Positions 2,350 to 33,985 of a stretch of DNA of 41,401 bases are shown here, piece by piece. Below the pieces are notes generated by a model. The model was not told the DNA's origin and ran no database searches. It was given only the letters and a program-made list of their open reading frames with translations. Numbering within the stretch: position 1 is the stretch's first letter; each line of letters begins with the position of its first letter. A program made the translations under genes and the position numbers. The stretch comes from Promethearchaeati archaeon (GTDB lineage: Archaea > Asgardarchaeota > Heimdallarchaeia > JABLTI01): positions 1 through 41,401 of the forward strand of contig JABLTI010000014.1 of NCBI GenBank assembly GCA_013166835.1, given 5' to 3'.

Positions 2350-2455
2350 GTTTCAAATCTGTCCGTAAAATAAAGAATTTTCTCTGCATTCATCTTCAAA
2401 ATAAACGAAAAGATTAAAGTAATTCCCTTTTCAAATTGCAATTGGTTATAGACAG

Positions 2456-3886
2456 ATGAAGTTGCCTGACAAAGAAAAAGAATTTCTGCAATGGTATACC
2501 GCTGTAATAGAATACGCAAACATTGTTGATAAGCGATCTCCCGTGAAGGGATCGAATGTTATTATGCCTTATGGGTATTCGATCTGGGAATCCATTGTAG
2601 CAAAATTAGATGGAGAATTAAAAGCCACCGGACATAAGAATGCTTATTTTCCATTATTCATTCCTGAAGATTATCTCGAGAAAGAAGCAGAGCATTTTGA
2701 AGGATTTATTCCTGAAGTTGCTTGGGTAACTAGAGCCGGAGATAGAGAATTAGACAGAAAACTAGCTCTTCGTCCAACTTCTGAAACAATTATGTATGAA
2801 ATGTTTAGACTGTGGATTAGAAGCCATGGAGATTTACCTTTAAAAATAAATCAATGGTGTAATATCATTCGATTTGATACTAAAGAAACAAAACCGTTAC
2901 TTCGAGATCGTGAATTTCTGTGGTCAGAAGGTCATACCTGCCATTCAACTGCAAAAGAAGCAGAAGAACAAGTTAGGGAATCCATGGAACTCTATGAAGC
3001 AGTATATAGAGAAAGCTGTATGTCATATTTGATTGTAAGAAGACCAAAATATGATACATTTGCAGGAGCAATCTATTCAATTGCATATGACTGCCCATTA
3101 CCAGATGGTCGAACATTACAAATCGGTACCACTCATAATCTTGGGCAAGGATTTAGTAAAGCCTTTAACATCACATTCCAAGACAAAGATAAGAAAAACA
3201 AAAATGTCTATCAAACTTGTTATGGATTATCTACAAGATTAATTGCGGCAATCGTTGGAATGCATGGTGATGAGAAGGGATTAATTATTCCTCCTTACAT
3301 CGCTCCAATTCAAATTGTGATTGTTCCAATTTATCAGAAAGAACAAAGAGAAGAAGTCATCAAAGCCAGCGAGAAAATGCTTAAGAAATTACTGAAAGCT
3401 GGTTTAAAAGTTGAATTAGATAAAAGGGAAGGATACACTCCTGGTTGGAAATTCAATGAATGGGAAGTTCGAGGAGTACCTATCAGGTTAGAACTCGGAC
3501 CTCGAGATATTGAAAACGACCAAGTCGTTCTTGTCCGAAGAGATACTGGTGAAAAAATATCTGTTCCTATGAAAGATACCGCGAAAAAAGCTGAGAAAAT
3601 CTTAGAGGAAATTCATGACTTCCTACAAAAACGTGCTGATAAACTCCTAGAGGATAGTATAAGTCATCCAAAAGATTACAAAGAACTTGTAAATATTCAG
3701 AAAACAAAACGTGGCTTCAGCAGAGTTAATTGGTGTGGAGACGAAGCTTGTGCAGAGAAAGTAAAAGATGATACAGGTGCAGATGTAAGGGGAACTCGAG
3801 AAGATAAAAAAGAAAAACCAGATGGCGTCTGCATTATTTGTGGAACTAAAGCAAAAGAAGTAGTTTACATAGCTTCCGCTTATTAG
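2456..3886 (+). CDS. proS: Proline-tRNA ligase, archaeal/eukaryotic type
   Basis: LRPTSET, DLPLKINQWCN, REFLWSEGHT, QIGTTHNLG, C-terminal Zn site WCG..C..CIICG ending in AY. Confidence 0.97.
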   Translation: MKLPDKEKEFLQWYTAVIEYANIVDKRSPVKGSNVIMPYGYSIWESIVAKLDGELKATGHKNAYFPLFIPEDYLEKEAEHFEGFIPEVAWVTRAGDRELDRKLALRPTSETIMYEMFRLWIRSHGDLPLKINQWCNIIRFDTKETKPLLRDREFLWSEGHTCHSTAKEAEEQVRESMELYEAVYRESCMSYLIVRRPKYDTFAGAIYSIAYDCPLPDGRTLQIGTTHNLGQGFSKAFNITFQDKDKKNKNVYQTCYGLSTRLIAAIVGMHGDEKGLIIPPYIAPIQIVIVPIYQKEQREEVIKASEKMLKKLLKAGLKVELDKREGYTPGWKFNEWEVRGVPIRLELGPRDIENDQVVLVRRDTGEKISVPMKDTAKKAEKILEEIHDFLQKRADKLLEDSISHPKDYKELVNIQKTKRGFSRVNWCGDEACAEKVKDDTGADVRGTREDKKEKPDGVCIICGTKAKEVVYIASAY

Positions 3887-3986
3887 AACTACTTTTTTCT
3901 TCAACTTTTCTCAAATAGTAAGGTATAATAAGATTTAGCGCACAAATTAGCATAGTTAAGCATTTTTCTGAAGGATAGAATCGAAA

Positions 3987-4400
3987 ATGACTCATGATCC
4001 CGAATTACAAAAGAAGATATACCAAATTCTCCGAGAAATTGGAGAATATACAGATTTAGATGCTCTAGCAGTGATAAATCGTGAAGGGATGAAAATATCT
4101 TTCTTTGCAAAGAAAGGAATAGATCCTGATTTGCTCTCAGCAATTTCAGCAGCGATTCTTTCTACAGGAGAAAAAGCTGTTTCATATAATGATCATGGGG
4201 GATTATTAGAAGTATTAGTAAGAGGAGAAAAAGGCTACACTATTCTTTCAAATGCTGGTGAGTATATTCTTATTGGAACCTCGTTAGAACTTAATTCCAT
4301 GGGTTTGACAATAAGAGTACTAAGAAAGTATGCAAGCAAATTACACGATATTATCAGTGGAGACGTCCCTGACGAAATTGGTCCTATTAGTTTGGATTAG
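3987..4400 (+). CDS. Roadblock/LAMTOR2 (MglB-like) domain protein
   Basis: AVINREG..ISF, DPDLLSAISAAILSTGEKA, LLEVLVRGEKGYTIL, NSMGL; 137 aa. Confidence 0.88.
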   Translation: MTHDPELQKKIYQILREIGEYTDLDALAVINREGMKISFFAKKGIDPDLLSAISAAILSTGEKAVSYNDHGGLLEVLVRGEKGYTILSNAGEYILIGTSLELNSMGLTIRVLRKYASKLHDIISGDVPDEIGPISLD

Positions 4401-4423
4401 AAAATAAGGAAACGGGTTAACTC

Positions 4424-5698
4424 ATGACAATTCCCTTCGAACTTCAAATGATTCATAAACAATCTGGTGTTCAGTTGTTTTCACATAGGTTTCGAGAGGA
4501 TATCAAACTTGATCCAACACTGATTTCTGGTTTTATCTCTGCAGTCATTCATTTTACAGAGGAATTGAAACCCTCTGAAGGAAAAGAGATGCTTAAATTC
4601 ATTGATCGGGGGGATTTTGTTTTACAAGTGGAACCCGGTGGTCTTGTAATTGGACTTTTGATTTTGAGCAGTAAAGATAACTCTTTCAAAGAAAAACTAA
4701 AGATACTTGTTACTGAATTTGAAAGGAAATATCATAAAGAAATCCTGAATTGGTCTGGATTTTCGTCTTGTTTTACTGACTTCGAGGAAGATGTTGTTCA
4801 ATTAATCTCTAGCAAACCCTTAAGTCCATATCATATTCCTAAATTGGTGAATTCTGATCGAGCCCCTAGTAAAATTGATGATATCAAATGGGCTATTATT
4901 ACTAAAATAGATGGTCAGAATGATATCAATGCTATAAGTGAAGAATTGGATATTAGTGTAGAAGTTGTCCAAGGTATAATTGCTTATTTTGAAGAATCCG
5001 GATTAGTGAAAACACACTTCGAATTAACTAATGATAGTGTTATAGAAATAGCTAAAAAAGGATTGAATGCTTTAGAAGTTGGTTCTGAAGATTATAGGGA
5101 ATTAGTCAGTGAAATTGGTGAAGTGGGATTAAAAGTTCTCTCTGTAATTGGAACAGAACGACCACTTGTTGATATAAGATCTGATGTAGGAATTCACAAT
5201 GATGAAATTATCGTGTTAATTGAAAAACTCGTTTCATCACGTTATATAGAAATCTTACCCAAGTGGAAAGTTGTTTTAGATAAGAAAGCATTTCATTTTA
5301 CACGTTCTTTAGAGTTCATTGATGACTTATTCCAGCTAATTTATGATGAATCCGATAATTGGTTGGATAACAGAGAACTTGAAAGAATGAAAGGAAACAC
5401 ATTTGGATTATTAATCATTAAAGACGAAGGTTTAGCTAAGATGGTTAGTGATCATGATGAGTATTTTGTTGACAGAAATAATCTAAAGAAATTATTAACT
5501 CAAATGGGTAGTCTCGAAGCAGTGATTATTCGCTTGGAAGGATTATTTAAAACTATGCAATCAAATATCGAAAAAGAAATTGGATCCAATCTTACCAAAG
5601 ATATTCTCTGTAAAGTACACAAGCGTTTAGAAGACGATTATTCTGAACTTATCGAACAACAAGCAGAACTTGAAGATATGCTAAATTGGTTACGATGA
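4424..5698 (+). CDS. Longin-domain protein with winged-helix repeats (NPRL2/NPRL3-like architecture)
   Basis: N-terminal SGVQLFSHRF...DPTLISGFISAVIHF (longin-like), then PYHIP...IITKIDGQNDINAISEELDISVEVVQGIIAYFEESGLV (wHTH) and a second wHTH-like segment. Confidence 0.7.
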   Translation: MTIPFELQMIHKQSGVQLFSHRFREDIKLDPTLISGFISAVIHFTEELKPSEGKEMLKFIDRGDFVLQVEPGGLVIGLLILSSKDNSFKEKLKILVTEFERKYHKEILNWSGFSSCFTDFEEDVVQLISSKPLSPYHIPKLVNSDRAPSKIDDIKWAIITKIDGQNDINAISEELDISVEVVQGIIAYFEESGLVKTHFELTNDSVIEIAKKGLNALEVGSEDYRELVSEIGEVGLKVLSVIGTERPLVDIRSDVGIHNDEIIVLIEKLVSSRYIEILPKWKVVLDKKAFHFTRSLEFIDDLFQLIYDESDNWLDNRELERMKGNTFGLLIIKDEGLAKMVSDHDEYFVDRNNLKKLLTQMGSLEAVIIRLEGLFKTMQSNIEKEIGSNLTKDILCKVHKRLEDDYSELIEQQAELEDMLNWLR

Positions 5699-5736
5699 GA
5701 AAATAAAAGAGAAATGGTTGTTTTTTCAACATTTCT

Positions 5737-6954
5737 CTAAGCGGTTTTTATGAATCTCTCTAAGCGATTCATGGCTTCATCAATCATTTCTTCTTGTGAT
5801 AAGAATACAAGACGGAAATGATTTTTCCCAAATTCTTTACCAAATCCACTTCCAAATACGGAAACTACTCCTTCATCTTTGAGGAAACTTAAAATGAAAT
5901 CTTTATCAGTTTTATATTTACCAAGCTTATCTATATGTGGAAAGATATAGAACGCTGCTTCTGGTTTTTCCGTAGAAATACCATCAATTTCATTCAATCG
6001 TTTATAGATTAAATCTCTTCTCTTTCTTAGTTTTGCAACTGTATCCTTTATATGATCTTGTGGACCCTTTAAGGCTTCAACGCAACCATATTGAGCTGGT
6101 GTGTTTACACACAATCTTAACCTACCCAATTTTATGATTCCATCATAAACATCTCTAATTTTATCCTCTGGATCCTGGAGATACACATAACCAATCCGCC
6201 ATCCTGGCATTAAGTAAACCTTGGAAAAGCCATTCATCATGAATAAGGGAACATCTTTTGCCACTGAGGGCATACCTATGAATTTTTGATCCATTGTAAG
6301 TCGATCATAAATCTCATCAGCAATGATAGGTATATCGTGCTCTCCAGCAATATCAGCAATTGCTTTCAATTCTTTTTCCCGATACACTGCTCCGGTTGGG
6401 TTATTTGGATTAATTATCAAAATTGCTTTTGTTTTCTCATTCACTTTTTTCCTTATATCTTCAGTGTCAGGCTGCCAATTATCATCACTAATAGTTCTAT
6501 ATGTGACTGCTTGAGCATCATAGAACTTTGGATAGGCTGAGTAGGATGGATAGGCAGGTCCTGGTATAAGGATCTCATCACCAGGTGTCAATAATGATCC
6601 GAGTAAAAACATAATGCCTTCAGAAATTCCAGCGGTAACATGAATATCCTCAATAGGAAGATCTTTGGCCCCATTAATTTTCATTTCTTTTTCTGCAATA
6701 GCCTCTCTTAGCGGGACGATGCCTTGAGATTCCGAATAAAAACTCTTGTTCTCATTTGCTGCTTTAATAAACGCTTCAACAATATTTGGAGGAGTTTCAA
6801 AATCGTATTTATTGGGATCCCCAATATTTAACCAAATAAGATCTTTCCCTTGAGCAACTAATTTTCTTGCTTCGGCACTAACATCTCTTATAGCATATTC
6901 TAAAGATTGAACTCGAGCTGCTTGCTTCACTTTAATTAACTCCAATTTTTGCAT
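5737..6954 (-). CDS. Class I/II PLP-dependent aminotransferase (AlaA/AspC-like)
   Basis: LNIGDP, NPNNPTG, DEIY, NGFSK..MPGWRIG (PLP lysine). Confidence 0.93.
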   Translation of the reverse strand: MQKLELIKVKQAARVQSLEYAIRDVSAEARKLVAQGKDLIWLNIGDPNKYDFETPPNIVEAFIKAANENKSFYSESQGIVPLREAIAEKEMKINGAKDLPIEDIHVTAGISEGIMFLLGSLLTPGDEILIPGPAYPSYSAYPKFYDAQAVTYRTISDDNWQPDTEDIRKKVNEKTKAILIINPNNPTGAVYREKELKAIADIAGEHDIPIIADEIYDRLTMDQKFIGMPSVAKDVPLFMMNGFSKVYLMPGWRIGYVYLQDPEDKIRDVYDGIIKLGRLRLCVNTPAQYGCVEALKGPQDHIKDTVAKLRKRRDLIYKRLNEIDGISTEKPEAAFYIFPHIDKLGKYKTDKDFILSFLKDEGVVSVFGSGFGKEFGKNHFRLVFLSQEEMIDEAMNRLERFIKTA

Positions 6955-8545: not shown

Positions 8546-9541
8546 TTAAAGAACTACAACACGCTTAGCTGAGATAATAACTTGATACTTCCTTTGATCT
8601 ATAGTTCTGTATGAGATATGTATGCTTGGGAGTATAATGTACTCCTCTTTCTTTGGCTTGATTTTAAAAGTTTCAAGGATAGCTGATTCATAATTTAATT
8701 GATCAACAATCCTTCGTGGATACATAGATAGTATTTCGAATTCATTAGTCGGTGGCAAAGCAAGATCTACTAGATAGGCAATTCCATCGCCGATATTAGA
8801 GATTTTTACCTGGACGTAATTTTCTTTCTTATATTGTAATGGTGTAGAAATAACATATTCTGCTACAACATTAGGTAAGGCATTTTTCTCAGATGCAAGT
8901 AAATCTCCTATATCAGCAATTGCAAGATGTGGGGGACTAATCCCTTCTAATGCATAAAGAGCTGCTAAATCTTCATAAGCAATTACATCTGAATATGATC
9001 TTTCAATACCTGCATCTAGTAATAATTCTTTGAGGGCTGCAGGATATGTTGTATCCAGATCTGTTGAAATATCTAATTCACGATATTCCCGACCTTTTGA
9101 ATAATCCATGAAAACTTGATATCCATGAACCCCAGGTTCTATTGTACTGATTTTCGTTGGATCGCAAACTAAAGCAATGGCATTTTCAAATAAGCTTTGC
9201 TGATTTCTCTGTGTTCGTATATCTACACTAGACATGAAGAATCCAAATGAGGGATGACTGTGGAACCAGCCTACAATAATAGCATCTATTTTATCTGCTT
9301 CTTCAGCTATTTTTGGTATTATAGTATAATCAGACATTTCTACAAAAATTGAACTACCACTAGTCATGGGGATTGCTCTCAAAACAGTAGCAGTTTCTCC
9401 CTCAATAGTACCAATCAGCCAACCAATTACTTCTCGCCATTGCCTATAAGGCCTGTTTGGATTCGCATATTCAATTACGTACTTGAACATTTCATCGTAG
9501 GCTTCTTTGGTAACAATGACTGATTGTATCATATTAACCAA
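8546..9541 (-). CDS. JAMM/MPN+ metalloisopeptidase (Rpn11/CSN5-like) with C-terminal Ig-like domain (probable ATG start 9532)
   Basis: EVIGWLIG, VGWFHSHPSFGFFMSSVDI.TQ, ALVCDP; C-terminal VKISNIGDGIAY...LPSIHISY. Confidence 0.88.
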   Translation of the reverse strand: MVNMIQSVIVTKEAYDEMFKYVIEYANPNRPYRQWREVIGWLIGTIEGETATVLRAIPMTSGSSIFVEMSDYTIIPKIAEEADKIDAIIVGWFHSHPSFGFFMSSVDIRTQRNQQSLFENAIALVCDPTKISTIEPGVHGYQVFMDYSKGREYRELDISTDLDTTYPAALKELLLDAGIERSYSDVIAYEDLAALYALEGISPPHLAIADIGDLLASEKNALPNVVAEYVISTPLQYKKENYVQVKISNIGDGIAYLVDLALPPTNEFEILSMYPRRIVDQLNYESAILETFKIKPKKEEYIILPSIHISYRTIDQRKYQVIISAKRVVVL

Positions 9542-9564: not shown

Positions 9565-10248
9565 CTATAAATTATCTGGGACCTCATGTCTTTTAAGAAT
9601 TTCAATTAACCAGTTAACAAAAGGTTGCCTAAAAGCATCAGTTGTTGGGTAAATGTCTTCAATACTATCTTCGGCTGATCCAGTAGCATTATACGCAACA
9701 ATACTCTTTAACGCAGATATTTCTATGTAGGGTATCTTAAACTCCTGCTTCTCAAACAGTTTTTCTGTAAAACTAACTGCTTCCTCTATATCTACTTGAT
9801 TTTGGTTATCTTGTCTTAAATCAGATTTATTACCACATATTAGAATGGGAATATTTCCCGCATGACCCCAAATAATATCCCGCCACTTAGATATAGCCTG
9901 AAAAGAATCTCTATCTGTGACATCAAAAACAATGATACCACCCTTTGCTCCATAATAGAAGAGAGAATGAAGATATGGAAAATATCTTTGTGATCGTAAA
10001 TCATAAATTCTTCCAATAATATTTACTCTTTGAGAATTTTCTTTTTTGAAGGGAATTTCAAGTGATGCAGAATAACCTCTACCTGCAATACCTGACCCTG
10101 TTAAAGCTTCAAGTAAGGTTGTTTTTCCTACCTTAGAATTACCTACTAATACTATTTTTACTGTATGTGATTTCTCTTCTTGAGAAGAGAATTTGGTTTC
10201 AATAGTAGGTTCCATGTTAATGTTCTCCAAACATTCGGAAACAACCAC
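9565..10248 (-). CDS. Rab-like small GTPase with degenerate G3 (probable ATG start 10215)
   Basis: G1 GNSKVGKT, G3 position YDLRSQR, FYYGAKGGIIVFDVT, G4 GNKSD, G5 SAL. Confidence 0.85.
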   Translation of the reverse strand: MVVSECLENINMEPTIETKFSSQEEKSHTVKIVLVGNSKVGKTTLLEALTGSGIAGRGYSASLEIPFKKENSQRVNIIGRIYDLRSQRYFPYLHSLFYYGAKGGIIVFDVTDRDSFQAISKWRDIIWGHAGNIPILICGNKSDLRQDNQNQVDIEEAVSFTEKLFEKQEFKIPYIEISALKSIVAYNATGSAEDSIEDIYPTTDAFRQPFVNWLIEILKRHEVPDNL

Positions 10249-11759: not shown

Positions 11760-12833
11760 ATGTCTTTACGTCCAACATACAGAGCAATAGGCATTGATTT
11801 AGGTACGTCAACCATTAAGCTTTCATGTGCTTCGCATCTCAAGAAAATTCCTTCAATTGTAGGAGCCCCACTTGAAGGTTGGAGAGGATTCAGTGGAGAT
11901 TCTTCTTTGGAAAAAAACCTCGTTATTAGTGATGGAACAAGAAGTCTCTATGTTGGGGAATTAGCACGATTACAAAGTGAAATCAAACGTGAAATCGCAA
12001 GTGAAGGAAAAGTGAAAAGCATTGAAGACGCTGTGCTAGCGATAAAGGCTGTTTTAGCTTTAATTACTGATAAGAACTATGATGAAATCATAATGGCTAC
12101 AGGAGTTCCAGTAGCTTCATCAAAAAAAGAAATGGTAAAACTTGCTAAGGGATTGAAAGGCGCATTAGATATCAATGTTGAAAACGAAGCAACGGGAGAC
12201 AAAATAAAGCGTTTGCTTTCGATTAAGCATTGCATTGTTATGCCTGAACCCTTTGGGACTTATTATTATACTTTGAAAACCCTGGGAGAATCGAGAGCTG
12301 TAGATGCAATTGTAATTGATGTTGGCCATGGATCTACTGATATTTTAACACTTTATGAGGGTAGAGTTATGCGCCAAGCTTCTGGTAGTTTAGAAGAAGC
12401 AGCTGACACATTAACCCACAGAATTGCCCAGGAATTACAAAATCAAACTGGAAAAATAATTAGACCCTTTGATCTTATGTCATCACTTTCACAAGGAAAG
12501 GATGTTTTAACTATTGCCGGTGAACGATGGGATATTCTAAGTATGAAAGAATATCATATCGAAATCATTGCTGATGTAATTCTTGATGAGGTTAATAGAT
12601 TAATAGGAACCTTACCACCAGACGCAATTATTGAGAAGGTTATTCTCTGTGGTGGGGGAATGCATATATTCGGAGATAGATTGAAACTAGGTTTTGAACA
12701 AGCAGGATTAGCAGAACATCCTGAAATGCTGATATTACCTGAAAATCCAGTTATGTCAAATGCAATGGGTTTTGAATTATTTGCCCGAAGATTCATATCA
12801 GGCTTAGGAGATGATGGATACAATGAGCTCTAA
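11760..12833 (+). CDS. ParM/StbA/Ta0583-like actin-fold ATPase
   Basis: Phosphate-1 IGIDLGTSTIK, YVGELA, ATGVPV, connect-1 VMPEPFGT, phosphate-2 IDVGHGSTDI, adenosine LCGGG, connect-2 SNAMGF. Confidence 0.9.
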   Translation: MSLRPTYRAIGIDLGTSTIKLSCASHLKKIPSIVGAPLEGWRGFSGDSSLEKNLVISDGTRSLYVGELARLQSEIKREIASEGKVKSIEDAVLAIKAVLALITDKNYDEIIMATGVPVASSKKEMVKLAKGLKGALDINVENEATGDKIKRLLSIKHCIVMPEPFGTYYYTLKTLGESRAVDAIVIDVGHGSTDILTLYEGRVMRQASGSLEEAADTLTHRIAQELQNQTGKIIRPFDLMSSLSQGKDVLTIAGERWDILSMKEYHIEIIADVILDEVNRLIGTLPPDAIIEKVILCGGGMHIFGDRLKLGFEQAGLAEHPEMLILPENPVMSNAMGFELFARRFISGLGDDGYNEL

Positions 12834-13515
12834 GAAACCACCTGCAAAGAAAACAGAAAGTAAGAGCACTAAAGCTAAGACCAAAACTAAGCCTAAGTCT
12901 AGTGCTAGTAAGAGAAATGAAAAATTAAAAAAACCAGCTCCAAAAGAGGTTAAAGAGTCTCATGAGGATTCTGATAGGAGTAAACGAAGAAGCTTAATTT
13001 CAGCTTTAAAGAGAGGAATTTCTACTAAAGGTGATAGTCCTTCAGCTTCATCAAAGGATCCTATGAATATTGTAATTACACTTAGTCCTGCTAAGCATGC
13101 AGATATTATTGAATACATTGAAGAAACAGTCCCTGGCGGTGGTAGAGCCGAATGGGTTCGTGACTCGATTAGACTGAAAATGAGAATTGAACGTGGTGTT
13201 TATGGTTTAAACACCTCTGGACAAGATGAAACGCAAAAAGGAACAGATGAAACCCTTCAAACAGTTTTTGGACAATTCGCTGAAGTTATGACGAAAGTCA
13301 TGTCAGATCTTAAATCAGAGCAACCAGCTACAAGACAGGTTCAAGCATCTTCTGATACGGAACGACCAAGACCTCCCCCACGTGAAAGAGCAGATCGAGG
13401 GGGTCCTCCTCAGCTAAAGAAAGTTGAGGTTAAAGATGATAAGCAATTGGAAGAACTGAAACCTGATAGACCATCCTTAGATGATGCTATTGGTGCCATT
13501 GTTATAGTTGAATAA
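12811..13515 (+). CDS. ParR-like ribbon-helix-helix protein with Lys-rich N-tail and Pro-rich linker
   Basis: Overlaps the actin-like gene; MNIVITLSP..HADIIEYIEE..GGGRAEWVRDSIR fits strand-helix-helix; RPRPPPRE; terminal PSLDDAIGAIVIVE. Confidence 0.65.
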   Translation: MMDTMSSKKPPAKKTESKSTKAKTKTKPKSSASKRNEKLKKPAPKEVKESHEDSDRSKRRSLISALKRGISTKGDSPSASSKDPMNIVITLSPAKHADIIEYIEETVPGGGRAEWVRDSIRLKMRIERGVYGLNTSGQDETQKGTDETLQTVFGQFAEVMTKVMSDLKSEQPATRQVQASSDTERPRPPPRERADRGGPPQLKKVEVKDDKQLEELKPDRPSLDDAIGAIVIVE

Positions 13516-13533
13516 TTGGAATGAGGATTAACT

Positions 13534-14649
13534 ATGAATATTCTTTACAAAATACCTCTTGAAGCAAAAGATCTTACTCAATTTCTTGAAGAAGAAAAGA
13601 ACTTCCTAATAGGGTTCCTAAAATTATTGGAAGAAGTAGATACAAGTGGGCTAAGTAAGAAAAATACAGATATTATTTCTCAGTTGAAAGATATACTTCT
13701 GGCAGAGGTTGATAAAATATTTCCCTCAAAGAATCCTCAAAATCAAATTCAAGCTCTACTCTCTTTAGCAAGAAATCTGGCAAAATCCTTTAACAAGGCA
13801 AAAATAGAAGATCTTGGAATTGTCAATAGATGGGTTTTACTTACAGATGGTTATCTTGGCAGCTTTGTAGAAAAAGATTATGAGATTGCTATTTTGTTAT
13901 ATTTAATTTCAGCAATTTATCAAACTCGTGCTCTTGCACATGTTCAGACAAGTCCACAGTATCGTTATTATCATATCTCATCTTTGTCTGCATTGAAAGG
14001 AGCAATTTTGTTTATGGAGTGTGTAGCTCCACAAGAAGAACACTATTCGTATCCGTTTTACAATTTACTCCTCCTAAGAAAATTGGAGGTTGAAGCTGAA
14101 GTCACTAAATCTGAAGCTTTTATTGCTCGTAAACAAGGTGATTTCAATCGTGCATCTAAGCTTTTTGCTGGAGCAGCTTCATTTCGGTTTTCTATGATGA
14201 GTTATGAGTTACCAAGTGAATCTGACAATAGGGTGAAGATTTATGCATCCACTGAATTAGGAATGGCTTGTTTCTATATTGCAGTTGGACACTCTAATCT
14301 TAATGAATCCCAACAAGCTCACTCATATCTACTAAAAGCAAAAAGTTACTTTGAAAATGCTGCGAAACTTTCAGAGGACAATACCGAGCTCTTAGAAGCA
14401 GCAAATAAGCGATTAGAATTAGTTAATCCTTACATAAATAGAATTCAAGATACGATTGAAACTAAGGATGTAAAAATCGAGGATATTGCTGACCCGCAAC
14501 CATTAATGATTCATCCTGATCCTGAACCTCTCTTTACTCCGAATGATAAAACCGAAGGACCACTTAGAATTTGTTCTAACTGCGTTAAAAAAGTAGTCTG
14601 GGCTGATGTTTGCTCAGAATGTGGTGAAACTATAATCCCGTTTGAGTAA
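13534..14649 (+). CDS. Alpha-helical TPR-like protein with C-terminal Zn ribbon
   Basis: Ala-rich helices GDFNRASKLFAGAA, AHSYLLKAKSYFENAAKL; CSNC..CSECG. Confidence 0.65.
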   Translation: MNILYKIPLEAKDLTQFLEEEKNFLIGFLKLLEEVDTSGLSKKNTDIISQLKDILLAEVDKIFPSKNPQNQIQALLSLARNLAKSFNKAKIEDLGIVNRWVLLTDGYLGSFVEKDYEIAILLYLISAIYQTRALAHVQTSPQYRYYHISSLSALKGAILFMECVAPQEEHYSYPFYNLLLLRKLEVEAEVTKSEAFIARKQGDFNRASKLFAGAASFRFSMMSYELPSESDNRVKIYASTELGMACFYIAVGHSNLNESQQAHSYLLKAKSYFENAAKLSEDNTELLEAANKRLELVNPYINRIQDTIETKDVKIEDIADPQPLMIHPDPEPLFTPNDKTEGPLRICSNCVKKVVWADVCSECGETIIPFE

Positions 14650-14715
14650 ATGATAAAACATAAATTTGTTAAGCAAATTATCCATAGTAAATCATGTTAA
14701 AGGAATGGACTAACG

Positions 14716-15453
14716 GTGCTAATCCACAAATATCGAACCACAAGGTCTCTTAAAATTTGTTACTGGGGACCAAGTATGGCTGGGAAAACATTCACTGTAA
14801 CTGCTATTAAAGTAATGAAGTCCTTAGAGGATCCGAAAAGTGTTTTCGATTTTGTAACAGTTAAAGATCAGGAAACCGGGAAAACTGTTTTCTTTGACCA
14901 GGCTGTTTTTGGTTTTGGATCAAAACCTGAATCGGATGAATTTCTATTCAAAATTCATGTTTTTACTACAGCAGGGCAAAGAAGACTAAAAGAAACAAGG
15001 AAAGTCGTTCTACAAGGAATTCATGGTTTAGTGCTTGTTGTCGACGCTGATTTGAATAATTGGGATGAAAACATATGGTCTTTACAAGAACTCAAAGAGC
15101 TAAAAGGCGAGGACATCAAAGAACAAAAAATCCCGTATACTGTTTTTGTAAATAAACAAGATCTTCCATGGGGCACAAAAATCTCACATAGACATATCAA
15201 ACAACTATTTGATGCAGCAGATGTTTCAGATCTTTTCCCCGAATTAGAAGGAAATGTATTTAGTGGTTCTTGCCAGCAAGCTAGAGCTGATTTGAAAAGC
15301 CTTCTAAGTAATACCCCAAAAGACGTTATTCTTAGTTCTGAAGGCCATTTTAAAAGAGAATTTAGACCGGATTCATTTAGTCCCTTGATGAAATCAATGG
15401 AAGATATTGTAAAACAGATTCTTAAAAAAGAGTTTTTGGCAACTAAGACTTAG
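14716..15453 (+). CDS. MglA-family small GTPase
   Basis: KICYWGPSMAGKT, KTVFFD, TTAGQ, RKVVLQGIHGLVLVVDA, NKQDLP match MglA-type motifs. Confidence 0.87.
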   Translation: MLIHKYRTTRSLKICYWGPSMAGKTFTVTAIKVMKSLEDPKSVFDFVTVKDQETGKTVFFDQAVFGFGSKPESDEFLFKIHVFTTAGQRRLKETRKVVLQGIHGLVLVVDADLNNWDENIWSLQELKELKGEDIKEQKIPYTVFVNKQDLPWGTKISHRHIKQLFDAADVSDLFPELEGNVFSGSCQQARADLKSLLSNTPKDVILSSEGHFKREFRPDSFSPLMKSMEDIVKQILKKEFLATKT

Positions 15454-20379: not shown

Positions 20380-20799
20380 TTGAGAGTGGTAAATCTGAAG
20401 GGTAAGCATGTTGAATTCTCCACTAATCAACTAAAACGATACGAAAAACAAACTACCGACAAGAAAAGCAAAGTAGTGGAAACGATCACAGGTGGTTTTG
20501 TTGAATTTAACACGACAGTTAGTAAAAAAGACACTCTGAAACAAACGACATTAATATCTGGATCAAATATAGAAACTAACATTTCTAGTATAGGATCTTG
20601 GTCATGGGTAGCAAAAAAACCGACAGTATGTATGATATGTAAACTTCCTCTAAAATCAACGCAAAGCATTTCTCGATGTCCAATGTGTCATTCACTATTC
20701 CATGCAGACCATATATTTGAATGGTTGAAAGTAAAAGGAAAATGCCCTGTTTGTTTACAAAATTTACGACCAGGTGGAACTGAAGAAGTGAAACTTTAA
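20380..20799 (+). CDS. RING-finger protein (putative E3 ligase)
   Basis: CMIC-x12-CPMC-HSLF-H-AD-H-IFEWL...CPVC. Confidence 0.85.
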   Translation: MRVVNLKGKHVEFSTNQLKRYEKQTTDKKSKVVETITGGFVEFNTTVSKKDTLKQTTLISGSNIETNISSIGSWSWVAKKPTVCMICKLPLKSTQSISRCPMCHSLFHADHIFEWLKVKGKCPVCLQNLRPGGTEEVKL

Positions 20800-33160: not shown

Positions 33161-33985
33161 TTAGGTTATTTTTAGATGCTGTTCAATTTTTTGAATTGTA
33201 GGTTCAACGGATTCTAAAAGTGGGTTGTTACTGGATTTAAAAATAAAAGCAGCATTTTTCAGATACTTCAGTGCTTCTTTAAGATCCCCCTCATCATATC
33301 GTTTTAATCCAAGATTTAAGAGTAAATCACCAAATTCCTCTTCTCTTTCTTCTGAGAGTGGGATTGAATATTTTTTACTGAATCTTCGAGCGATAATATA
33401 TGCCTTCATTGCTTCCTCAAATTTCCCGAGTTTATTGAGGATCTTTGATTGATCGAGTGCAATATTAATTACTAATTGTGGTTCTTTACTTTTCTGAGCT
33501 AATTCAATCGCGTCATTCAAGATATTAATTGCTTTTTCCCCATCGTCGTCTTTTTTGTAAATAATTATTGCTAGATTCTTCAACCCTCTTGCTCTTCCTT
33601 TCTTATCTGGAGTTCCTTTTCTTAGCTTAAGAGCATTAATTTGGTATTCTTCCGCATACTTTAATTCATCTTGCAGCATAAAGCTTATGGCAATATTATC
33701 GTAACAATCAGCCATGCCTATTTTATGACCATAGTTTTTGAAGGCGAGATAGGCTCTTTTGTAATGGTTTCTTGATTCGATCATATTTCCTTTTTCAAAA
33801 AAAATCTCAGCTAAAATTCTATGAATGTCTGCTAAAATTACGTGTTCAGTTGAATTTCTAAAAAATTGAAGGGCTAATTCTAAAGCATTAAATGCTTTTT
33901 CTGCATTCCTTGCTTCATATGCTTTTTTTCCTTGCAAGTATTGCATTGATGCTTCTTCTTTTTGCTTTTTCTTAGACATCTTCAT
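33161..33985 (-). CDS. Tetratricopeptide-repeat protein
   Basis: Repeated helical pairs, e.g. GMADCYDNIA, ARGLKNLAIIIY, LGKFEEAMKAY, GDLKEALKYL. Confidence 0.88.
   Translation of the reverse strand: MKMSKKKQKEEASMQYLQGKKAYEARNAEKAFNALELALQFFRNSTEHVILADIHRILAEIFFEKGNMIESRNHYKRAYLAFKNYGHKIGMADCYDNIAISFMLQDELKYAEEYQINALKLRKGTPDKKGRARGLKNLAIIIYKKDDDGEKAINILNDAIELAQKSKEPQLVINIALDQSKILNKLGKFEEAMKAYIIARRFSKKYSIPLSEEREEEFGDLLLNLGLKRYDEGDLKEALKYLKNAAFIFKSSNNPLLESVEPTIQKIEQHLKIT

Follow-up and report, generated by a model that had tools for sequence, protein, structure and literature searches.

Does a pair of adjacent genes in a Heimdall-group Asgard archaeon represent a forerunner of the eukaryotic GATOR1 and Ragulator complexes? 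The pair, a Roadblock/LC7 gene followed by a gene for a 424-residue protein, lies at positions 3987 to 5698 of contig JABLTI010000014.1 (assembly GCA_013166835.1), which was analyzed over positions 1 to 41,401; that whole stretch is called the window here. The first-pass annotation of this DNA had proposed an ancestral nutrient-signaling module. We found that the tandem winged helices of the 424-aa protein share true homology with the C-terminal region of eukaryotic NPRL2/Npr2. The reading that we favor, with a probability of roughly 0.6, is that the protein is a Heimdall-group Asgard NPRL2-like protein that serves as a noncatalytic platform or adaptor for a small Ras-superfamily GTPase and is co-transcribed with the roadblock protein. 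It builds on results obtained here for the fold (a model), the NPRL2 homology, conservation, gene order and phyletic range. The parts of the pair are as follows.

3987-4400, + strand: Roadblock/LC7 gene, 137 aa, Pfam Robl_LC7
4401..4423, + strand: 23-nt spacer between the roadblock and 424-aa genes, with a purine-rich AAGGAAAC slightly 5′ of the ATG
4424-5698, + strand: 424-aa gene (longin domain, two winged helices, helical tail)
4424..4813, + strand: longin domain, residues 1-130
4814..5260, + strand: linker and two winged-helix units, residues 131-279, homologous to the NPRL2/Npr2 C-terminal region
5261..5698, + strand: C-terminal helical tail, residues 280-424, and stop codon

The 424-aa protein is homologous to NPRL2

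NPRL2 is described as a longin domain followed by tandem winged helices (PMC3747258). An AlphaFold2 model of the 424-aa protein, built from 24 orthologues (mean predicted local distance difference test score [pLDDT] 78, predicted template modeling score 0.45, residues 25-63 below a pLDDT of 50), has the longin-type element order strand-strand-helix-strands-helix-helix over residues 3-130, two winged-helix units at about 150-216 and 233-279, and a helical tail at 280-423. In VIA-align, the longin domain matched that of Sec22b with Z 14.2 and a root mean square deviation (rmsd) of 2.7 over 123 of 127 residues, followed by Fuzzy (Z 12.5) and synbindin (Z 12.4). The element order and the Sec22b match bear out the N-terminal longin-like domain named in the first-pass annotation, which had also suggested a Foldseek comparison for preference toward NPRL2/3. 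In that comparison against the PDB, all 13 matches at E ≤ 0.001 were GATOR1/SEAC chains (7.6e-8 to 2.6e-5), and generic longins came next, from 2e-3. Chains identified as NPRL2 were 8fw5_B and the matched chains of 9o5a, 9o5d, 7t3a, 7t3b and 9v0j, and those identified as Npr2 were 8adl_S and 9h4q; the longer chains (8fw5_C and others) we take to be NPRL3 from their length alone.

A search independent of Foldseek gave the same answer for the winged helices. Among 48,161 representative chains, the best matches of residues 130-279 were NPRL2 (Z 11.4) and Npr2 (Z 11.0). VIA-align placed these residues on NPRL2 166-327 with Z 11.4-11.7, 145-149 aligned residues and 17% identity; the rmsd was high (8.4-8.6) because the region consists of two mobile units. 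FAM91A1 (Z 9.3) and single winged helices (Z 9.7 over 70 residues) scored lower, by a margin of about 2 Z units.

Two profiles were used at the sequence level, A1 from the 24 orthologues of the window's family and A2 from 36 members of the wider Asgard family. Profile A2 matched human NPRL2 in the PDB (HMMER, E 1.2e-8), with profile positions 134-284 aligned to NPRL2 171-333 across both winged helices, including the P-Y-x-I-P / Y-D-V-P-V and I-D-G motifs. Yeast Npr2 followed at E 7.8e-5 and the best MarR regulator at 3.9e-4, four orders of magnitude weaker than NPRL2; no NPRL3 chain was matched by A2 in the PDB. The designed "CAP repeat" 8vd6, the top A2 match, was set aside as an artifact of five weak repeats summing. 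The NPRL2 segment that the first-pass annotation had cited appears in the HMMER alignment, opposite the same region of the 424-aa protein, and the comparison was therefore correct. The stretch quoted with it, KPLSPYHIP...EESGLV, corresponds to residues 131-195 (nucleotides 4814-5008) and contains the invariant linker motif S-P-Y-H-x-P. Since Foldseek, the all-against-all structure search and the family profile all favor NPRL2, the similarity is not limited to a generic winged helix-turn-helix (wHTH): the NPRL2 resemblance is real and preferential. With a significant sequence profile and two independent structure searches behind it, the homology means that the C-terminal winged-helix pair of NPRL2 is older than eukaryotes and occurs in a Heimdall-group lineage.

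In the longin domain, G15, directly before strand 2, is invariant among the orthologues. Longin helix 1 (DPTLISGFISAV..F.EEL) is the best-conserved stretch of the family, with F37, A40 and F44 nearly invariant across the 36 sequences. The winged helices of the 24 orthologues are acidic (median pI 4.4 and 4.9; median net charge -6.5 and -3), as is the whole protein (median net charge -19). DNA binding is therefore disfavored, and protein contacts as in GATOR1 are favored.

The tail is well conserved within the window's family and lies outside the NPRL2 alignments. In the full model, 10-residue block means of pLDDT were 59 for residues 281-290 and 85-95 for 291-424; modeled alone from 10 sequences, the tail reached 52.6. 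No relative of it was identified, its sole Pfam match (ATP12, E 6.9e-4, 20.2 bits) lying below the cut-off of 27. For the 424-aa protein as a whole nothing exceeded a Pfam cut-off, and the only matches were weak winged-helix ones; a single-sequence search of the PDB returned complement C4 alone (E 1.9), with NPRL2 absent.

Catalytic and partner features of GATOR1

Longin GTPase-activating proteins (GAPs) are reported to carry a "GP" motif directly before strand 2, beside the arginine finger (PMC12290439). The glycine of this motif, G15, is kept in 24/24 orthologues and 32/36 members of the wider family, while all 24 orthologues have V, I or M in place of the proline. The arginine finger has been assigned to R78, on a longin-domain loop, in human NPRL2 (PMC8534245) and to R84, with N85, in yeast Npr2 (PMC12999518). 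No conserved arginine was present in the loops beside G15, as placed by the strand topology of the model. R62 (in IDRGDF) is invariant in the 24 orthologues but is arginine in only 16 of the 36 family members, and the same topology would put it in a hairpin at the end of the sheet away from G15. Position 89, at the start of helix 2, was the only longin column in which 50% or more of the 36 sequences have arginine.

Partner subunits were sought in the genome that contains the window, which is 84.75% complete. It has 17 longin-type matches, of which only the 424-aa gene extends into winged helices; because just this 1 of 17 has a winged-helix part, no NPRL3-like paralogue was found. Pfam IML1 (PF12257) had no match at E ≤ 1, although a very distant relative could escape such a search. 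Rag-like GTPases are plentiful, with 17 Pfam Gtr1_RagA matches (best 1.3e-33); these genes are found on other contigs, in some cases next to other longin-type genes, and none adjoins the roadblock/424-aa pair. The earlier proposal of an ancestral Ragulator/GATOR1 nutrient module is not supported. An archaeal GATOR1 or Ragulator is not demonstrated: a conserved arginine finger, an NPRL3-like paralogous partner, an NPR2, NPR3 or IML1 match that would signal, among others, a DEPDC5-like subunit, and an adjacent Rag-like gene are missing or were not found.

Several proteins in the same genome (G000), each about 700-740 aa long (open frames, about 690-740 aa), carry this longin-type domain at the C terminus (C77:15931-16278, C73:16862-17155, C165:19939-20211, also on C80, C208 and C123). 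The class occurs phylum-wide (E about 1e-19), and the examples scanned had no Pfam match.

Relatives and their gene contexts

Full-length orthologues (E < 1e-160) were confined, among 400 genomes of the phylum, to the window's family, where 11 of 12 genomes have one (9 complete, 2 cut by contig ends); the twelfth, G083 (85% complete), gave only a match at 2.5e-16. Some match was present in 368 of the 400. The orthologue search collected 56 proteins at E ≤ 0.001 among 6773 candidates (58-100% identity), and the source records label the orthologues and near-identical copies Candidatus Heimdallarchaeota or "Asgard group". Of 1.84 billion representatives searched with HMMER, 752 proteins matched at E ≤ 0.001; 71 of these reached E ≤ 1e-10 and 7 reached E ≤ 1e-30. 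A word-index search with the wide profile returned Asgard proteins only (69 at E ≤ 1 among 8000 scored candidates), and the feature-space clusters nearest to the 424-aa protein were hypothetical proteins of Thorarchaeota and other Asgard archaea. Relatives that combine the longin domain with winged helices have 280-460 aa; many larger ones carry the longin-type domain only, mostly at the C terminus. Most of the 28 relatives that were scanned had no Pfam family; some matched HTH_47 or TrmB. In P0150 (626 aa), an Arf/Ras-like GTPase (residues 112-244) is fused in front of the same longin domain and two winged helices (358-626), and P0076 ends in a V4R domain.

Thirty loci with relatives were examined and grouped into 12 gene contexts outside the window's family. 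Small-GTPase genes lay no more than two genes away in 2 of the 12, both times in tight same-strand clusters. In one (f15; L056:106-3999, the same place as L022, and L032), the order is cysteinyl-tRNA synthetase (CysRS), a 348-aa relative, a Ras-like protein and a Rab-like GTPase, with gaps of 25 and 12 nt; in the other (f10; L054), an Arf-like GTPase gene shares an operon of overlapping genes with the relative. The P0150 fusion and these two clusters point to GTPases. An aminoacyl-tRNA synthetase (aaRS) or Trm1, a tRNA methyltransferase, adjoins relatives in 3/12 contexts, Trm1 doing so in two families, and the count of aaRS/tRNA-methyltransferase neighbors becomes 4/13 with the window included. 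One further context (L060) is embedded in two-component genes.

Several of these loci had features of their own. The f15 Ras-like protein (176 aa) has a degenerate P-loop that lacks the GK[ST] signature and is possibly a pseudo-GTPase, and a class-I aaRS gene is convergent with that cluster. Directly 3′ of relatives in two families are genes for small proteins (about 100 aa, three hydrophobic helices; P0217 at L057:3375-3680 and P0218 at L058:4948-5247), which are possible membrane anchors. In another Asgard family, f31, relatives of about 290 and 277 aa form adjacent paralogue pairs reminiscent of the NPRL2/NPRL3 pair, flanked by radical-SAM genes and with a Robl_LC7 gene two genes away. The pairs are at the following positions.

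L047:3959-4834 and 4837-5664
L048:2852-3679 and 3803-4657
L062:2934-3773 and 3773-4675

The roadblock gene and its linkage

The upstream gene encodes a full-length roadblock protein (Pfam Robl_LC7, E 6.7e-9, 35.8 bits against a cut-off of 23), and, as first annotated, it ends 23 bp 5′ of the 424-aa gene. The protein is acidic (pI 4.5-5.0 in 9 orthologues). A profile of the 9 orthologues matched the solved Robl_LC7 proteins 7f8m_A (2.5e-12) and 9jue_D (1.2e-11), the latter a roadblock homodimer from the Asgard archaeon MK-D1 according to the structure title. Matches at orthologue level (E ≤ 1e-12) were found in 137/151 genomes of the phylum. The window's genome has 7 Robl_LC7 matches above the cut-off, spread over 5 contigs; 6 of the 7 are not on the window's contig. 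The locus itself holds one roadblock gene and no adjacent GTPase gene; no LAMTOR1-like anchor turned up, though no search was aimed at one.

Within the family, the roadblock gene is directly 5′ of the 424-aa gene at all 8 loci with upstream DNA, two more being cut by contig ends. This linkage says little, because these close relatives share the gene order of the entire ten-gene block. In another family (f32; L067:1483-3284), prolyl-tRNA synthetase (ProRS) is directly 5′ of a roadblock orthologue, as in the window, and the ProRS-roadblock adjacency is therefore older than that of the roadblock and NPRL2-like genes.

Among the contexts of 424-aa relatives, a Robl_LC7 gene was nearby in only 1 of 12, the f31 loci (3/3). 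It was rejected as an orthologue of the window's roadblock gene and corresponds instead to a different roadblock paralogue of the window's genome: its best match there is on another contig (2.2e-19, 37% identity), compared with 4.2e-6 and 23% identity to the gene in the window. In family f6 (L066, L069, L071, L072 and L073; alignment A5), the gene after the roadblock orthologue encodes a conserved protein, about 220 aa long and without a Pfam match, that is predicted to have four membrane helices and ends in a helical cytosolic tail. By hhalign it shows no relationship to the 424-aa protein, and the idea that the two share a tail was rejected (probabilities 0.4% and 0.07%).

Gene layout and transcription of the pair

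The genes and elements that flank the pair are these.

629-1477, + strand: GTPase-thioredoxin fusion, a Ras/Rab-like GTPase with a C-terminal thioredoxin-like domain containing a CxxC motif
1558-2349, + strand: TrmI/GCD14-type tRNA methyltransferase (tRNA m1A)
2456-3886, + strand: ProRS
3887..3986, + strand: intergenic region 5′ of the roadblock gene, read from the sequence as having T-rich tracts directly after the ProRS stop codon
5709..5737: inverted repeat GAGAAATGGTTG-TTTTTT-CAACATTTCTC with a T6 loop, between the convergent 424-aa and aminotransferase genes
5737-6954, - strand: class I/II aminotransferase, convergent with the 424-aa gene

The proS and aminotransferase genes that had been named as neighbors are thus both in place. 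Three genes upstream and on the same strand, the GTPase-thioredoxin gene keeps its syntenic place in every close relative whose sequence covers that DNA.

The intergenic region contains a TATA-like TATAATAA at 3924-3931, about 56 nt 5′ of the roadblock ATG, and is probably the pair's own promoter. The spacer at 4401..4423 has neither a T-tract nor a TATA-like element, and the inverted repeat at 5709..5737 is probably a two-way terminator. Since the TATA-like element and T-tracts lie 5′, the 23-nt spacer has neither and a hairpin lies 3′, the two genes are probably co-transcribed, as a compact and conserved two-gene unit. A scan for bacterial-type promoters found 9 promoter-like sites where 7.5 were expected, and a terminator scan requiring at least 3 G-C pairs found none; these bacterial-type scans are uninformative because the host is an archaeon. 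In RNA library X10, two 151-nt contigs were identical to 4869-5019 and 5182-5332, a weak hint that the 424-aa gene is expressed, as DNA can occur in such a library. No contig from it fell on the roadblock gene or the two-gene junction, which is uninformative either way. Identical short contigs from X10 also fell on ProRS. Contigs of a sediment metagenome from a second study (run X5) contain a near-identical copy of positions 2400-5800, with 5 differing letters in 3.4 kb.

A GTPase platform and its alternatives

If the 424-aa protein is a noncatalytic GTPase platform, its longin domain would dock the GTPase through the conserved helix 1 and the loops near it, in a homodimer or in a pair with a second longin protein or a roadblock protein, and GAP catalysis would be absent. 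In C9orf72-SMCR8, parallel longin helices are reported to carry switch II of ARF1 (PMC8213707), and longin helix 1 may correspond to these ARF1-bearing helices. The acidic winged helices would, as in GATOR1, mediate contacts between proteins and would not bind DNA. The widely conserved roadblock protein may be the partner that the 424-aa protein binds in this one family.

A number of results weigh against this reading. At the level of homology, profile A1 did not reach NPRL2 in the PDB at E ≤ 10, its best match being MarR at E 0.033; because A1 alone falls short, the sequence link to NPRL2 depends on the wider family. Pfam NPR2 (PF06218) and NPR3 (PF03666) matched neither the 424-aa protein nor any of its three parts at E ≤ 10, and the whole genome gave no NPR2 match at E ≤ 10 and no NPR3 match at E ≤ 1. 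Whole-chain TM-scores to NPRL2/3 were low (0.18-0.27) and rmsd values high (8-14 Å), because the domains are differently placed. The longin domain alone resembles SNARE/TRAPP/adaptor longins at least as well as it does NPRL2/3 (VIA-align). At the level of gene order, the roadblock linkage seen at all 8 family loci did not extend further: none of 10 loci with a roadblock orthologue outside the family had a 424-aa relative within 1.5 kb on each side, and elsewhere the roadblock gene keeps other company, such as ribosomal protein S26e and a PadR regulator downstream in family f33. Within the window, the closest GTPase gene on the upstream side (629-1477) is three genes away and the one on the downstream side (9565-10248) four, and 2 GTPase contexts in 12 are not clearly above chance in genomes so rich in small GTPases. 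GTPase binding, the lack of GAP catalysis, roadblock binding and co-transcription are all inferences.

The first alternative is the minimal ancestral GATOR1/Ragulator module itself, in which the NPRL2-like protein would act as a GAP or guanine nucleotide exchange factor on a Rag/Gtr-like GTPase and the roadblock protein would be the scaffold, in the service of amino acid signaling. True NPRL2 homology, the 17 Gtr1_RagA matches, the invariant GP glycine and the R62 that all 24 orthologues share would fit it, as would the recurrence of amino-acid-related neighbors (ProRS directly 5′ of the roadblock gene, CysRS directly 5′ of a relative at L056/L032, and Trm1 twice). That recurrence is post hoc and weak, at 3 of 12 independent contexts against about 0.7 expected (rough p near 0.04). 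The lost proline, the predicted placement of R62 at the far end of the sheet and its patchy occurrence beyond the orthologues, and position 89 as the only arginine-rich longin column all speak against it. With Rag-like genes on other contigs, no NPRL3-like partner or Pfam NPR3/IML1 match in the incomplete genome, and roadblock adjacency confined to one family, we consider this alternative unlikely.

A broader version would make NPRL2-like longin-winged-helix proteins parts of a small-GTPase switch wired to amino acid or tRNA-charging status, a pre-eukaryotic forerunner of the amino acid branch of the Rag/GATOR system, in which roadblock and NPRL2-like proteins would form a platform that reads the GTPase. 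Its hints are the same-strand run of GTPase-thioredoxin, tRNA m1A methyltransferase, ProRS, roadblock and NPRL2-like genes in the window's family and, elsewhere, ProRS-roadblock (L067), CysRS-relative-pseudo-GTPase-Rab-like in a distant family and Trm1 in two families. We regard it as speculative and rather improbable.

The protein might instead be an adaptor with no GTPase to serve, a scaffold for translation (aaRS/tRNA enzymes) or for a membrane protein, its longin domain acting as a dimerization or cargo module as in SNARE and adaptor longins. The best longin matches, to SNARE/TRAPP/adaptor longins at Z 12-14, the aaRS/tRNA-methyltransferase neighbors in 4/13 contexts and the three-helix membrane proteins P0217 and P0218 directly 3′ of relatives in two families are consistent with this view. 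It has difficulty with the P0150 GTPase fusion and the two GTPase operons, and all solved NPRL2/3-type complexes, as presented in PMC8534245, PMC8213707 and PMC12999518, are GTPase regulators, which makes such an adaptor quite doubtful. Equally hard to credit is a ligand-sensing transcription regulator whose N-terminal alpha/beta domain senses a small molecule or protein while the winged helices bind DNA: the JGI label "predicted transcriptional regulator" on several orthologues, the below-cut-off wHTH/MarR matches (Pfam, and MarR in the PDB) and the HTH_47 or TrmB matches of some relatives lean that way, against the acidity of the winged helices and of the whole protein, the far weaker MarR score with the family profile and the fact that the closest relative of the tandem unit in both sequence and structure is NPRL2, whose domains make protein contacts.

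Other features of the window

The window has a low G+C content (about 0.30-0.37) and a typical Asgard gene content, with several Ras-/Arf-/Rag-like GTPases, a JAB protein, an actin-like protein, a RING finger, ribosomal proteins and SMC. The gene at 8546-9541 (- strand) encodes a fusion of a JAB/MPN deubiquitinase-type domain with one that matches TRAP-beta (translocon-associated protein beta, E 9.6e-8); it is directly downstream of the Ras-like GTPase gene at 9565-10248 (- strand). A cluster at 11760-15453 (+ strand) encodes an actin-like (ALP/MreB-like) protein, 234- and 371-aa proteins without a Pfam match and a protein of 245 aa that weakly matches the Arf family. Two eukaryote-like signature proteins are a RING-finger protein at 20380-20799 (+ strand; zf-RING_2, E 1.1e-6) and a TPR protein at 33161-33985 (- strand) that matches the SNAP family (E 6.9e-10).

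Comparison with known systems

The 424-aa protein shares with NPRL2/Npr2, the GATOR1/SEACIT subunit that is a GAP for RagA/Gtr1, its domain order and a profile similarity over both winged helices, and NPRL2 and Npr2 are the top structural matches of residues 130-279. It differs in having no Pfam NPR2 match, a GP motif reduced to G, no identifiable arginine finger, an extra helical tail and only about 17% identity in the aligned part, and the genome yielded neither an NPRL3 nor a DEPDC5/Iml1 partner. NPRL3/Npr3, the noncatalytic paralogue in GATOR1, gave the longest alignments, spanning longin domain and winged helices (model residues 3-278 on residues 6-406 of 8fw5_C/7t3b_C, 221-242 aligned, Z 10.2-10.5), these two chains being taken as NPRL3 from length only. 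Both NPRL3, as described in PMC12290439, and the 424-aa protein lack the GP motif, whereas no sequence-profile match to NPRL3 and no Pfam NPR3 match in the genome accompanied the structural one.

The upstream gene, as a full-length Roadblock/LC7 protein, resembles the roadblock platforms MglB, Ragulator LAMTOR2-5 and the Asgard RB proteins (as presented in PMC10933270), but no GTPase gene adjoins it here and its orthologues outside the family have other neighbors. Asgard longin proteins of the FLCN/SMCR8 type have likewise been proposed as relatives of eukaryotic longin GAPs (PMC12290439). Those described there retain both GP and the arginine, while the window's family keeps the glycine only; their partner modules are DENN or roadblock domains, in place of the NPRL2-type winged helices found here.

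The 424-aa protein belongs with the NPRL2-like proteins of Asgard archaea, whose existence was already published in a 2020 preprint by Liu et al. (bioRxiv 10.1101/2020.10.19.343400). According to that preprint, proteins of the same domain organization occur in Thor and some Loki genomes, along with many NPRL2-like longin fusions, and "NPRL2-like longin domain" is a named asCOG category (PMC9834061). Our literature search found no description of the Heimdall 424-aa orthologue group or of the roadblock pairing, although the supplementary tables of Liu et al. may list the group. The 424-aa group is set apart from the proteins reported there by its extra 145-residue helical tail, its upstream roadblock gene and its one-family range. 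It shares with them the longin domain joined to an NPRL2-type C-terminal region, in a family with varied fusions, and the two-component gene setting, seen here for the relative at L060.

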